Shown here piece by piece: positions 4,747 through 9,303 of a stretch of 20,000 nt of DNA. The translations under genes were made by a program, and so were the position numbers. The stretch lies in the IMG/VR virus record IMGVR_UViG_3300027541_000229; one strand, given 5' to 3'. Within the stretch, counting starts at the first letter, position 1. The number at the start of each line of letters is the position of its first letter. The DNA is from an uncultured virus (IMG/VR IMGVR_UViG_3300027541_000229). Taxonomy: Duplodnaviria > Heunggongvirae > Uroviricota > Caudoviricetes. The notes beneath the pieces were generated by a model. That model made no database searches. It worked only from the letters and a program-made list of their open reading frames with translations, and was not told the origin of the DNA.

Positions 4747-5751
4747 ATGTTTAAAAAAGTTGCCTGTTTTACAGACATCCATTTTGGATTAAAATCTGGT
4801 AGTAGGATCCACAATCAAGACTGCGAAGATTTCGTAGATTGGTTCTGCGAAACTGCCAAACAAGAAGGTGCAGAAACCTGTATCTTCCTTGGTGACTGGC
4901 ATCATAATCGATCAACGACTGATGTTAGTACCATGAACTATACTGTTAGCAATCTAGAAAAACTAAACAACAGTTTTGATCATGTATATCTGATCATGGG
5001 CAACCATGATGAATACTACAAGGACAAACGTGAAATACACAGCCTAGAGTTTGCTAGACTGTTTCCTAATATCACGGTAGTGAACCAAACCATAACTGAT
5101 GGCGATGTAACTATCATGCCATGGCTTGTTGGTGACGAGTGGCAGAAGATTCCTAAGATCAAGAGCCGTTATATGTTTTCGCATCTTGAGCTTCCGCATT
5201 TTTATATGAACGCCATGGTGCAGATGCCAGACCACGGTCAGTTGCAGTCTACACACTTTGCTAATCAAGAATATGTGTTTACAGGGCATTTCCATAAACG
5301 ACAGACCAAAGGCAATATCGTTTACATCGGCAATGCGTTTCCGCACAACTATGCAGATTCGTTTGATGACGATCGAGGTATGATGCTGCTTGAATGGGGT
5401 AAGGAGCCTGTTTATAAGACATGGCCTGGTCAACCCATTTATAGGACCTATAAGCTAAGTCAAATCATTGATACTCCCGACAAGCTATTGCGTGAAAAGA
5501 TGCATTGTCGTGTTACTATTGACTTGCCTATCACTTTTGAAGAAGCTAACTTTATCAAAGAACAGTTCATGCCACAATATAATCTGCGTGAACTGATGCT
5601 TATTCCTGAAAAAGTAGAAGTTGAAAGTAATGCTGTAGCGATAGATCTTAAGTTTGAAAGCGTCGATACTATCGTCATGAACCAAATCAATGCTATCGAA
5701 AGCGATACCTATGACAAAAAACTGTTACTGGAGATCTATAGAGACCTATGA
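4747..5751 (+). CDS. Recombination nuclease subunit gp47 (Mre11/SbcD-like metallophosphoesterase)
   Basis: Motifs DIHFG, GDWHH, GNHD, SHLE and GHFH. Confidence 0.92.
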   Translation: MFKKVACFTDIHFGLKSGSRIHNQDCEDFVDWFCETAKQEGAETCIFLGDWHHNRSTTDVSTMNYTVSNLEKLNNSFDHVYLIMGNHDEYYKDKREIHSLEFARLFPNITVVNQTITDGDVTIMPWLVGDEWQKIPKIKSRYMFSHLELPHFYMNAMVQMPDHGQLQSTHFANQEYVFTGHFHKRQTKGNIVYIGNAFPHNYADSFDDDRGMMLLEWGKEPVYKTWPGQPIYRTYKLSQIIDTPDKLLREKMHCRVTIDLPITFEEANFIKEQFMPQYNLRELMLIPEKVEVESNAVAIDLKFESVDTIVMNQINAIESDTYDKKLLLEIYRDL

Positions 5752-7529
5752 TAAAGATTAAAAATCTAACAGTTAGAAACTTTATGAGCGTGGGCAACCA
5801 AACCCAAGCTATCGACTTTGACCGTGGACAGCTGACCTTAGTCTTAGGTGAAAATCTAGATCTAGGAGGTGATGACTCTGGCGCCCGTAACGGAACAGGC
5901 AAAACTACAATCATCAACGGACTGAGCTACGCTATCTATGGTCAAGCCCTAACTAACATCAAGCGTGATAATCTTATCAATAAGATTAACAGCAAAGGTA
6001 TGTTGGTTACAGTTACCTTTGAAAAAGATGGTGTTGAATATCATATCGAACGTGGACGAAAACCTAATCTTCTCAAGTTTAGTGTAAACGGAGAGGAGCA
6101 AGATCTTGAAAATGCCACTGACGAAAGTCAAGGCGACTCTCGAGAAACACAAAAAGCTATCGAAGAAATATTTCCAATGACCCATGAGATGTTTAAACAT
6201 CTTGTGGCGCTGAATACCTATACTGAACCGTTCCTTAGTATGAAGGCTGCTGATCAACGAGCCATCATTGAACAGCTATTAGGTATTACTCTGCTCAGTG
6301 AAAAAGCAGAAAATCTCAAAGAACAAGTTAAACTAACCAAAGATGCTATCAACAGTGAAAACACAAGGATTGAAACTGTTAAAGCATCTAACGATCGCAT
6401 ACAACAAAGCATCGAAGCACTAGAAAGAAAACAAAAACTGTGGGAAGAACAAAAGACCAAAGCAGTCACTGACCTACAGAAAAGCATCGATGTACTGTCA
6501 ACTATTGATATTGAGCAAGAGATCTCAAATCAACGTGCTCTAGAAGAATGGAATAAGAATAAAAAGGAACGTGATAGAGTACAGGCTCTGTTGGCTAAGT
6601 CTATAGCCACACTAGAAAAAGAACAAAAGACTCTTAAAAAACTAGAATCTGAGTTGGTCTTGTTAGCTGAACACAAGTGTCATAGCTGTGGTCAGGATCT
6701 GCATGACCACAAGCACGAAGAAATGATGACTAATAAGGTCAAACAGATCGATGACGCACAGTCCTTTATAGATAACCATGCCGATGATCTAATGAAACTG
6801 CAAGGCGAAATGGATCTACTAGGAGAACAAACTGATTGTCCTAAGGTTGTCTATGAAAATCTAGAAGAAGCACTTAATCATAAGAACACTATCGAAGGCC
6901 TTACTAAAGATCTACAGACTAAAACTTCTGAAGTAAACCCCTATCAAGAACAGATCGAAGAACTTAAGAAAACTGCGGTACAAGAGATTGATTGGGATCA
7001 ACTAAATGAACTAGTACGAGTTAAAGAGCATCAAGAGTTTCTATACAAACTACTCACTAACAAAGATAGTTTTGTACGCAAACGCATCATTGATCAGAAT
7101 CTAGCGTTCTTAAATCAGCGATTGACCTATTATCTCGATAAGATTGGTCTGCCTCATATCGTCGAGTTTCAAAATGACCTAAGTGTCATCATTACACAGC
7201 TAGGTCAAGATCTAGATTTTGATAATCTAAGCCGAGGAGAACGTAATAGGTTGATACTAAGTCTAAGTTGGGCGTTCCGTGATGTGTGGGAGAATCTATA
7301 TCATAACATCAACTTGCTGTTTATTGACGAGTTAGTAGATAGCGGCATGGACGCCAGCGGTGTTGAATCTAGTATCGCTGTATTAAAACGCATGACTCGT
7401 GAACGCGATAAGAATGTGTTCTTGATCAGCCATAGAGATGATCTAACTAATCGTGTAAACCATGTGTTAAAAGTTATTAAAGAAAACGGTTTTACTAGTT
7501 ATAGCAATGACGTGGAGATCGTAGCGTGA
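5748..7529 (+). CDS. Recombination ATPase gp46 (Rad50/SbcC-like)
   Basis: NFMSVGN, Walker A NGTGKTT, coiled coil with zinc hook CHSC, signature LSRGE, Walker B LLFIDE and H-loop ISH. ATGA overlap with gp47. Confidence 0.93.
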   Translation: MIKIKNLTVRNFMSVGNQTQAIDFDRGQLTLVLGENLDLGGDDSGARNGTGKTTIINGLSYAIYGQALTNIKRDNLINKINSKGMLVTVTFEKDGVEYHIERGRKPNLLKFSVNGEEQDLENATDESQGDSRETQKAIEEIFPMTHEMFKHLVALNTYTEPFLSMKAADQRAIIEQLLGITLLSEKAENLKEQVKLTKDAINSENTRIETVKASNDRIQQSIEALERKQKLWEEQKTKAVTDLQKSIDVLSTIDIEQEISNQRALEEWNKNKKERDRVQALLAKSIATLEKEQKTLKKLESELVLLAEHKCHSCGQDLHDHKHEEMMTNKVKQIDDAQSFIDNHADDLMKLQGEMDLLGEQTDCPKVVYENLEEALNHKNTIEGLTKDLQTKTSEVNPYQEQIEELKKTAVQEIDWDQLNELVRVKEHQEFLYKLLTNKDSFVRKRIIDQNLAFLNQRLTYYLDKIGLPHIVEFQNDLSVIITQLGQDLDFDNLSRGERNRLILSLSWAFRDVWENLYHNINLLFIDELVDSGMDASGVESSIAVLKRMTRERDKNVFLISHRDDLTNRVNHVLKVIKENGFTSYSNDVEIVA

Positions 7530-8146
7530 ACATCAACAGTAGAATCATAGCTTTGTCAAACATGACCCTTCTTAGGGCAGAAGTTCCTGTCAATCTTTTA
7601 AGGATAATGTTAGATGAAATAGATCAAATAGAAAAAGACGAGGGGTCTGCAGAAGAAACTAAGTCTGGACTATCTTCTCCTGGCGTTCCTAAGCACTATA
7701 GATTTACCAAGTCTACAGAAGATCTACTAAAGGAGTATATTTTAGAATGTACTCAAATGTATAGAGAAAGTTGTCACTATTTAAAGACCTTTGATTCTCC
7801 TAAAGTTGAACCGCAATATTATTGCGAACGTCCATGGATTAACTTTCAAAGAGCTGGAGAGTTTCTTCCTAATCATATGCATGGCGGTGTACTAAGTTAT
7901 ACCATATGGCTAAGGATTCCGGAAGTCATTGACGATACTAAAGATCCATTCTCTGGACAACTAGAGTTTACCTACACAGATATGCTAGGAAGAACTCAAG
8001 GTGCTACTATGGGTGTTAACAAATACAGCGTTGGACAGACTATGTTATTTCCTAGTCTACTAAGACACTGTGTATATCCATTTAGCAACTCTGACGAAAT
8101 ACGAATATCTGTATCAGGTAATGTGTTTCTTGGACAAGAACCGTGA
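7526..8146 (+). CDS. Putative 2OG-Fe(II) oxygenase
   Basis: WINFQ..GEF.PNHMH (HxH), LFPSLLRHCVYPF (distal His) and RISVSGN (RxS). Confidence 0.8.
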   Translation: MNINSRIIALSNMTLLRAEVPVNLLRIMLDEIDQIEKDEGSAEETKSGLSSPGVPKHYRFTKSTEDLLKEYILECTQMYRESCHYLKTFDSPKVEPQYYCERPWINFQRAGEFLPNHMHGGVLSYTIWLRIPEVIDDTKDPFSGQLEFTYTDMLGRTQGATMGVNKYSVGQTMLFPSLLRHCVYPFSNSDEIRISVSGNVFLGQEP

Positions 8147-8373
8147 GTACAGAATCACACGACAAGATGATTGCTGCTTTTCAAGAATATTTCAAGTGGC
8201 AAGAACGATTTGAATACAAGCACAGCGACGAAGCTGGCATTAAGGCACGATTTTGGCTATCAGAAATACGCAATGAGGCATCAAAAAGGCGAGTAGAAAT
8301 ACAAGAAAAACGCAAGGAAAGGCGCAAAGCCAGAAAAGGCATGAGAGGCAAACCACTGTCTATAACTAAATGA
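8143..8373 (+). CDS. Small basic helical protein, possibly a histone H1-like (Hc1-type) DNA-binding protein
   Basis: AGIKAR..LSEI...A.KRR.EIQE pattern and a very basic C-terminus. GTGA overlap with the upstream gene. Confidence 0.5.
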   Translation: MSTESHDKMIAAFQEYFKWQERFEYKHSDEAGIKARFWLSEIRNEASKRRVEIQEKRKERRKARKGMRGKPLSITK

Positions 8374-8808
8374 GTGCAGTGGACATATCAAAATCAACCC
8401 GTAGAAGAAATACCTGAAGGCTACATTGGCTTCGTTTATCTCATCACCAACACAACCACCGGACAGAAGTACATAGGCAAGAAACTAGCACAGTTTAAAC
8501 GTACTAAACCACCACTCAAAGGCAAAAAACTTAAACGCAGAAGCACAGTAGAAAGCGATTGGCGCGATTACTGGGGTTCTAGCGATAGGTTAAACGCAGA
8601 TGTCCAAGCATTAGGTCCGGAAAACTTCACCCGAGAAATACTCTACTACTGTAAATCTAAGGCAGAAATGGGCTATTTAGAGGCTAGAGAACAGTTTGAA
8701 CGCAGAGTTTTAGAAACTGACGAGTATTATAATGGCATTATAAACGTCAGAGTAGGCGGTTCAAACATACTTAGGCAGCGTCTAGAAGAGCATAAAAAGG
8801 CCAAATAA
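8374..8808 (+). CDS. Stand-alone GIY-YIG (Seg-like) endonuclease
   Basis: GFVYLITN...KYIGKK, YWGSS, FTREIL, a conserved Glu (YLEAREQ) and YYN. At 144 aa it is essentially just the catalytic domain with a basic insertion. Confidence 0.8.
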   Translation: MQWTYQNQPVEEIPEGYIGFVYLITNTTTGQKYIGKKLAQFKRTKPPLKGKKLKRRSTVESDWRDYWGSSDRLNADVQALGPENFTREILYYCKSKAEMGYLEAREQFERRVLETDEYYNGIINVRVGGSNILRQRLEEHKKAK

Positions 8809-8820
8809 TCGCCAAAAAAA

Positions 8821-9100
8821 CCCGCACCGGTGACTGTTATGGTGCCCGAAATCCGCTCTGATGTGTGGCGGTAAGGAAGCTCTACCTTGGTGAAGAGCGA
8901 CTCAACCACTATCCTTAACAGGACGTTGATAGCAAAGACCTTGCTGTTTGGTTGTTTTTGAGAGCGAAATAAGGCAAAATGAGGGGAGAAAAACCCCACG
9001 TATACGTAAGTGATAGCAGATTTACGTATGCCGCCGTTGTATAAAGACGGAGCTCGAGGTACCGGACAACCGCCTCTGTAATGCTCTACTGCTGTGTGAC
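8821..9100 (+). ncRNA. Candidate large structured non-coding RNA (unassigned)
   Basis: A non-coding interval with consecutive and nested stems, G-U pairs that favour the + strand, and a 7-bp loop-to-downstream pairing (see findings). Confidence 0.55.
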
Positions 9101-9197
9101 TTGCCGAACTCGGATAAAGCTCAAACTTTTAGCCCGGAAACGGGCTAAGTGTGACCATTAGAATCTGGATAATGCTAAACTTTCCGCTTCGCGGAAA
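9094..9197 (+). repeat. Two imperfect tandem units (period 55 bp), each a conserved motif followed by a perfect hairpin
   Basis: GTGTGAC-N5-GAA-N3-GGATAA-N-GCT(C)AAACTTT starts at 9094 and at 9149. The hairpins are TTAGCCCG-GAAA-CGGGCTAA and TTTCCGC-TTC-GCGGAAA. Confidence 0.75.
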
Positions 9198-9266
9198 AAA
9201 GATTTTTAGATCATCTAGATAAAAATCTAAAAAAAGAAAAAATGCGCTGAGCGTAAGCGAAAGCGC

Positions 9267-9287
9267 AAACGAGCGTTAGCTCGTTTT
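9267..9287 (+). terminator. Perfect hairpin, possible intrinsic terminator
   Basis: AAACGAGC-GTTA-GCTCGTTT ends in a short T run, directly before the late promoter at 9291. Confidence 0.4.
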
Positions 9288-9290
9288 ACC

Positions 9291-9298
9291 GATAAATA
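9291..9298 (+). promoter_or_regulatory. T4-type late promoter (GATAAATA)
   Basis: ATAAATA core lies 5 nt before ATG 9304. Confidence 0.6.
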
Positions 9299-9303
9299 AA
9301 CAT

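Follow-up and report, generated by a model that had tools for sequence, protein, structure and literature searches.

The Polynucleobacter-1 motif (RF01718) was reported in 2010 from Burkholderiales and from fresh-water and estuarine samples, and the main text of that report mentions no GIY-YIG protein or endonuclease (PMC2864571). In its supplementary alignment, 11 of 16 sequences reach the equivalent of position ~9097 of the DNA described here and carry the same stems together with a structure line for a 7-bp pseudoknot. The RNA is the same as ours, and according to that supplement the ~280-nt form and its first pseudoknot are already published, without a function. The 2010 alignment stops before the segment called box 1 below, and its structure lines hold no second pseudoknot. 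In the open-access literature, the name Polynucleobacter-1 was found only in the 2010 paper.

In ColE1, the structured RNA II pairs with its template and is processed by RNase H, and the displaced strand serves for helicase loading (PMC5043065, PMC4412123). Pairing of an rG stretch in the RNA with a dC stretch in the template is essential for the persistent hybrid (PMC4412123). The T4 origins oriF and oriG consist of a promoter and a downstream unwinding element, with a persistent RNA-DNA hybrid as primer; as that source describes them, neither a large conserved RNA fold nor a pair of twin boxes is required (PMC4412123).

The current work concerns a stretch of 20,000 nucleotides of viral DNA, referred to at its full length as the window. 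PHROG matches to gp47/gp46, a late sigma factor, and baseplate and portal genes identify its source as a T4-like myophage, and the same element is found in related phages, among them contigs 345 kb (99% complete) and 372 kb (complete) long. We give an even chance to the reading that this element is a single-copy, RNA-primed replication origin, similar to the ColE1 RNA II preprimer, of a clade of ~350-kb T4-like aquatic phages. With RNA II it would share a long structured transcript, RNA-template pairing, RNase H processing, and a displaced strand for helicase loading. It differs from ColE1 in having no sequence similarity, in a pairing segment that is a variable mixed 7-mer and not a G run, in the lack of any known RNA I or Rop, and in its location in a large lytic phage. 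The Rfam RNAI model found no match in the window, and a model of the phage 3' module found none in ColE1. The likeness to oriF and oriG lies in the T4-like phage genome, in a promoter followed by an unwinding element, and in the proposed use of a lasting RNA-DNA hybrid as primer. A preliminary description of this region had named a primer or R-loop RNA for an origin as its second option, which the evidence presented below favours; the decisive features lie 3' of the coordinates that it covered. The features of the locus are as follows.

5748..7529, + strand: gp46/SbcC-like recombination nuclease subunit (phrog_77, E 1.7e-108), the conserved upstream neighbour and an independent marker for locus selection
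8143..8373, + strand: 76-aa basic protein in the slot before the nuclease; one cluster makes up 98 of 136 upstream neighbours
8374..8808, + strand: stand-alone SegE-like GIY-YIG nuclease (PF19835, E 5.5e-36, full-length; phrog_447)
8819..8957, + strand: 5' domain of the RNA, matching the Rfam Polynucleobacter-1 model (67.4 bits); exchangeable among relatives
8975..9097, + strand: RNA core with the long stem, pseudoknot 1 (9013-19/9089-95), pseudoknot 2 (9037-40/9066-69) and nested stems 9050-9086
9108..9120, + strand: box 1, fixed ACTC and then a variable 7-mer (9112-9118), the proposed guide segment
9129..9148, + strand: RNA-type hairpin between the boxes (tetraloops GNRA in 48 of 77 vs GNYA in 15; G-U 9 vs A-C 0)
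9163..9175, + strand: box 2, fixed ATCT and then the same variable 7-mer (9167-9173), the proposed DNA target
9181..9197, no strand assigned: hairpin that on the minus strand has the form of a GAA-triloop DNA mini-hairpin (CTTCG on + in 91 of 160 loci)
9198..9242, no strand assigned: AT-rich tract (mean 78% A+T in 81 loci vs 50% in the core)
9243..9285, + strand: two hairpins with GNA/GNNA loops (fold z below -4 as DNA on both strands)
9292..9298, + strand: ATAAATA, a late-promoter-like motif by sequence, before the next gene and outside the RNA

The preliminary description had not recognised the RNA as belonging to a known family. Its claim of novelty falls with the match of Rfam Polynucleobacter-1 to 8819-8957, which covers model positions 1-141 of 141 at 67.4 bits against a cut-off of 37, and with the ~280-nt pseudoknotted form in the 2010 supplement (PMC2864571). 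The 3' extension of that long form (a long stem, nested GAGG/CCUC stems and the 7-bp pseudoknot) corresponds to covarying pairs found here. At the E-value level, Rfam gave nothing for 8960-9300 or for the marine class of elements.

The structural statements of the same description fared better. All of the stems it listed are present, and the 495 nt after the GIY-YIG gene (8809-9303) hold no plausible + strand gene. The + strand of 8810-9110 folds with a z of -2.58 (0/100 shuffles as good) and the - strand with -1.01; the 5' 139 nt alone fold no better than shuffles (z -0.06). Folding without an alignment gave a poor result. In a 44-sequence alignment of 8975-9180, 93.8% of cells are paired and 29 of 39 pairs show two-sided change, a level reached in 0/500 shuffles, and slid controls pair at 33-48%. 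The predicted pseudoknot 9013-19/9089-95 is 98% paired in this alignment, with compensatory change in 6 of its 7 pairs. In the long stem, G-U cells far exceed A-C cells across 99 loci (133 vs 10); thus the folded strand is the + strand, as had been argued from G-U pairs. The CCGT/ACGG stem (9034-37/9047-50) is unsupported as drawn, because G9050 covaries with C9086, and 9037-40 pairs with 9066-69. This last pairing, with the ACAA loop at 9066-69, forms a second pseudoknot in which, over 99 loci, the pair 9038/9068 occurs 57 times as T-A and 42 times as C-G. The element, supposed to end at ~9100, has a conserved part that reaches ~9175 and hairpins that continue to 9285.

The 5' domain is the exchangeable part of the RNA. 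The Rfam model was found in 8 of 20 tested relatives, the other 12 having different or shortened 5' domains, and the 3' module is common to at least three unrelated-looking 5' bodies. Parts of this domain are missing from loci L016 and L397, by real deletion or by assembly collapse. In the hairpin of the three-way junction, positions 8912/8924 show a non-canonical covariation, T/C (57) vs C/T (34), that is likely a tertiary contact. In L102, a tandem array of ~9 copies of a 13-nt unit lies ~250-340 nt before the RNA, between promoter and RNA. Four of 23 matching RNA runs, all of them assembled contigs that carry no read ends or strand, cover the flanking genes and the spacer alike.

The twin boxes carry the main evidence. 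With boxes located without using identity, 161 of 162 non-redundant loci have the same 6-mer after ACTC as after ATCT; this 6-mer comes in 15 variants, and 6 loci were unresolved. A second count, 246 of 246 with 8 unresolved, used loci chosen by the box model, and the first is preferred. The boxes lie 55 nt apart in the window and 47-68 nt apart among the loci, with no frame preference. On a tree of 99 class-1 loci built without the boxes, position +4 changed 20-21 times, a single tip being discordant; +5 changed 7 times and +8 changed 9 times, with no discordant tip. The elements of L055 and L060, at 96% identity, have different sequences in both boxes, their GIY-YIG proteins differing at two peripheral residues. 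No residue of the GIY-YIG protein explains box position +4 (MI at most 0.18 of 0.95 bits), and a search for a third element column covarying with the boxes, or for a third in-cis complement of them, found none. In L100, the sole locus mismatched at position +4, the GIY-YIG gene lies on the strand opposite to the RNA.

The CTC/TCT difference beside the boxes has never been homogenised (162/162 loci). Since this neighbouring difference is never erased, selection rather than gene conversion would appear to keep the boxes identical. The flanks add a polarity: at +12, box 1/box 2 is T/C in 28 loci vs C/T in 1 (21 expected), and at -1 it is G/A in 14 vs A/G in 0 (13 expected). This pattern is the one expected if box 1 of the + strand pairs with the complement of box 2; it is absent at -2 and +13, and +11 is uninformative. 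The linked change of both boxes suggests that the RNA pairs with its own DNA, and we regard it as quite probable that box 1 RNA pairs with the template DNA strand at box 2.

A similar TG(A/G)C word precedes each box, so that the module resembles an old tandem duplication. The module is single-copy, with one strong copy in each of 5 large contigs, and it is kept in all 42 gp46-selected loci that have 3 kb downstream. In the lineage with RNase HI, the boxes share only ~4-5 nt, and the divergent relatives L455 and L457 have twin repeats of other sequence around a hairpin. Other RNA classes, with no sequence likeness to Polynucleobacter-1, occupy the locus at L455:3060-3520, L457:3060-3520 and L435:1745-2365, and have the same ending of twin repeats around a hairpin, AT-rich tract and mini-hairpins. 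The L031/L090 contig (L031:3700-3740) lacks box 1, the hairpin and the 3' strand of the pseudoknot, by a real deletion or by misassembly. A candidate "stem A" between the spacers before each box was dropped for weak and inconsistent support. Likenesses to the DnaA box, the sigma-70 -10 element and the C/D box were also rejected; none of these demands identity at free positions.

Past box 2, the character of the element shifts from RNA to DNA. The downstream loops show no GNRA preference (56 GNRA vs 47 GNYA). The ATAAATA motif at 9292-9298 presumably resembles T4 TATAAATA. Mini-hairpins of the type found here are far more stable in DNA and occur at the G4 and RSF1010 priming sites (PMC13037366). 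The GAGCG-N-AGCGA motif (9249-9260) has a single copy in the window, and three genomes of 270-372 kb likewise carry it once each, at the element in every case. A single copy is also present in ColE1, again downstream and on the same strand: it lies ~136 nt beyond the origin and reads in the sense of RNA II, with the origin placed ~550 nt after the RNA II start (PMC5043065).

At the level of the genome, strand-corrected four-fold GC skew in G008, G010 and G018 shows no sign change at the element and is confounded by gene class. In the same genomes, the RNA-sense strand is C-richer, opposite to the usual G excess of leading strands. In three clade genomes, which share synteny and are not independent, the main gene-orientation divergence point is no more than a few kb from the element. 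Distant blastn searches found no real match in cultured phages or plasmids. A pattern scan of GTDB gave 7 matches, of which 5 are true elements, located on short MAG contigs, and 2 are due to chance.

The first proposal of the preliminary description was a dedicated nuclease-RNA pair, and adjacency alone would seem to favour it. Of 80 core-selected loci, 2 were chance matches and 5 were incomplete; among the 73 informative ones, 66 have GIY-YIG within 1.5 kb, and it lies beside the RNA in 76/76 marine-class loci (4 incomplete dropped) and 41/42 gp46-selected loci; the 3' module was found in 62 of the 64 GIY-selected loci searched. The genes 5' of the nuclease are conserved as well, so the adjacency reflects synteny; the genes 3' of the element differ from locus to locus and frequently lie on the other strand. 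In 7 loci, nuclease and RNA are separated by other genes, and one RNA class is preceded by GIY-YIGs of ~55% as well as ~90% identity. No nuclease lies upstream of the RNA in L103, L112 and L143, and a sigma-70-like promoter of the RNA's own is present in L143 (11/12) and L112 (12/12). In five cultured phages with GIY-YIG, one of them 67% identical, the 3' module was found in 0/5; a model without base pairs (R1) gave 0 matches in the divergent G013, G014, G015 and G017, so that the blank in cultured phages excludes only close forms.

The slot of the nuclease can also be filled by a PD-(D/E)xK protein (PF24608; phrog_244, 'RusA-like Holliday junction resolvase'), as at L116:721-1242, L155:335-853 and L429:6851-7363. 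Among 28 PF24608 loci, the same module follows 276-314 nt downstream in 15, a diverged element follows directly in 2, and RNase HI and then a diverged element follow in 11; GIY-YIG occurs in none. PF24608 was not found in three GIY-YIG contigs, nor a stand-alone SegE orthologue in two complete 372-kb genomes of the resolvase lineage. In the contigs and genomes tested, then, one enzyme is found only where the other is missing, a hint that the phrog_447 family cuts junctions or branches. The linkage expected of a dedicated pair breaks down among homologues, where the RNA also stands behind another nuclease fold or its own promoter. By its distribution, the GIY-YIG protein is not a dedicated partner of the RNA, and the obligate linkage to one nuclease family that would mark an RNA-guided or OMEGA-like system was not found.

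The RNase HI (PF00075) between resolvase and element in those 11 of 28 loci is of bacterial type and is also present in L428/L102 (coordinates L433:3136-3552 and L428:6371-6790); the two placements may be one event. It is absent from G008 (99% complete) and G010.

The nuclease itself is ordinary. It matches the SegE-like family (PF19835, phrog_447) over its full length with nothing unusual, and the phrog_447 label 'NAD synthetase' is a mislabel of this family. The predicted model (pLDDT 96) best matches the I-TevI catalytic domain (Z 8.5, rmsd 2.6, 82 aligned residues), and a Foldseek structure search gave no match at E 0.001. The GIY-YIG superfamily fold and the Tyr/Tyr-Gly/Glu/Asn catalytic set are present, with Y22, Y33, G35, Y66, S69, E103 and N120 invariant among 103 sequences. 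The catalytic Arg of I-TevI is R27. No Arg is invariant among the 103 sequences, and one of K37 and R87, both conserved in at least 90%, may substitute for it. The basic insertion that had been singled out as a special feature is a predicted beta-hairpin common to the family consensus, including the Melnitz protein, which shares the basic stretch yet comes from a phage without the RNA. Relatives of the protein occur in 499 cultured phage records, and in most of the cultured carriers checked the space is too small for an RNA of this kind. The enzyme is probably a branch- or junction-cutting nuclease, because a resolvase-like PD-(D/E)xK enzyme replaces it in the same slot.

Several observations concern the neighbouring genes. 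The 76-aa basic protein (8143..8373) has no Pfam or PHROG match; Hc1 (histone H1-like) is a weak lead, with PF07432 on 10% of the members of one ESM Atlas cluster. L429:2802-5729 encodes a gp46 homologue of 975 aa with an internal insertion, and an HNH/NUMOD3 gene comes after it; by its motifs, the insertion looks like an intein with a homing endonuclease. In the gp46-selected loci L354-L431, where gp46 is 83-89% identical to that of the window, GIY-YIGs of ~55% and ~90% identity alternate, which suggests that the nuclease gene is exchanged among close relatives.

In the mechanism proposed for an RNA-primed origin, the starting points are the fold, its strand, the identity rule, the single copy and the independence from the nuclease, all of which were observed. 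As covariation shows, the + strand folds into a ~350-nt doubly pseudoknotted RNA that extends past hairpin 9129-9148; its transcript would come from the gp47-gp46 operon, of which GIY-YIG is the usual last gene. We strongly infer that box 1 RNA would pair with the template DNA opposite box 2, 47-68 nt downstream. Such pairing would explain both the required box identity and the toleration of flank mismatches only toward G-T or U-G pairs. From the paired boxes, a persistent R-loop would presumably spread into the AT-rich tract. RNase H of the host or the phage would trim the RNA to a 3' end that primes DNA synthesis, and the mini-hairpins on the unwound DNA would load primase or helicase. Against this mechanism stand the wobble polarity absent at -2 and +13, the fixed CTC/TCT difference, which would leave a 3-nt bubble, the missing skew switch and the C-richer RNA-sense strand, the weak boxes in the RNase HI lineage, the absence of RNase HI from G008 and G010, and the L031/L090 contig without box 1.

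Other explanations of the boxes must be weighed against this one. The RNA may pair with its own template at box 2 to control transcription by pausing, termination, insulation or antitermination, and not to prime replication. This is unlikely. The box evidence fits it equally well, the skew holds no origin signal, the element closes an operon and precedes a late-promoter-like motif, and the motif was scored as possibly cis-regulatory in 2010 (PMC2864571). Control of that kind would leave the AT-rich tract, the DNA-type mini-hairpins and the RNase HI adjacency unneeded, and it agrees poorly with downstream genes that vary and often lie on the opposite strand, and with the two loci that give the RNA its own near-perfect promoter. 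It is clearly improbable that the boxes are tandem sites at which a dimeric phage protein binds, either DNA sites like iterons or paired sites in the RNA; its specificity would then co-evolve with them, and the RNA would be a scaffold. Iterons are a standard feature of origins (PMC6312765), and the similar TG(A/G)C words suit a duplicated site; each of ~21 concerted switches at one position, however, would need a third change, in the protein. GIY-YIG does not track these switches, the adjacent CTC/TCT was never homogenised in 162/162 loci, and the wobble polarity points to base pairing.

The remaining alternatives are weaker still. The boxes could form a slipped-strand structure in DNA, nicked by the nuclease of the slot to start recombination-dependent replication or packaging; slippage also demands box identity, and the slot always holds a nuclease in the GIY and resolvase lineages. 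We consider this very unlikely, given the RNA signatures (G-U bias, GNRA loops) that extend to the hairpin between the boxes and the three loci, L103, L112 and L143, without a nuclease upstream. Direct repeats kept close in a folded RNA are a signature of template jumps, as in the hepadnavirus epsilon-to-DR1 transfer and DRT2 template jumping. A polymerase that copies box 2 and hops to box 1, in template switching or primer translocation, would produce the same pairing polarity; with box spacing that varies over 47-68 nt without frame preference and no RVT_1 match in five large contigs (0/5, one 99% complete, controls positive), such a hop is highly unlikely. The same five contigs set the element apart from the template RNAs of retrons and DRT systems, which go with a reverse transcriptase. 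Finally, the minimal GIY-YIG and the RNA might form a dedicated, possibly RNA-directed nuclease complex, as the adjacency counts (66/73, 76/76 and 41/42 loci) and the invariant catalytic Tyr, Glu and Asn would allow. By distribution, this complex is largely refuted and extremely unlikely: 15 of 28 PD-(D/E)xK loci carry the RNA without GIY-YIG, two complete 372-kb resolvase genomes lack a stand-alone SegE, 0/5 cultured GIY-YIG phages have the module, other genes intervene in 7 loci, and conserved upstream neighbours make the adjacency a matter of synteny.

The RNA family, the first pseudoknot and the ordinary nuclease were known. Apparently new are the 3' module with its twin boxes, the second pseudoknot, the nuclease swap and the RNase HI link; no description of the twin-box rule, its polarity, or of the last three was found in the open-access literature. 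The main text of PMC10690425 does not mention the 3' module, which its supplements may contain. An orphan RNA motif of 2010 thereby gains a 3' end, a testable mechanism and a place in the genome: a single-copy locus that belongs to the core of large uncultured phages, which are abundant. Covariation that keeps positions identical instead of complementary is a rare kind, and standard RNA motif pipelines overlook it. The nuclease swap suggests branch or junction cutting for a widespread SegE-like family labelled NAD synthetase.

If the origin reading is true, replication in these phages begins with a large folded RNA that finds its own DNA through base pairing. It is conceivable, though plainly unlikely, that the RNA scaffold presents box 1 as a freely variable guide and invades duplex DNA bearing a matching box, so that changed boxes, or a changed guide alone for a new target, would redirect R-loop and priming independently of any one nuclease family. 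If true, this would be a natural guide-directed initiation of DNA replication.
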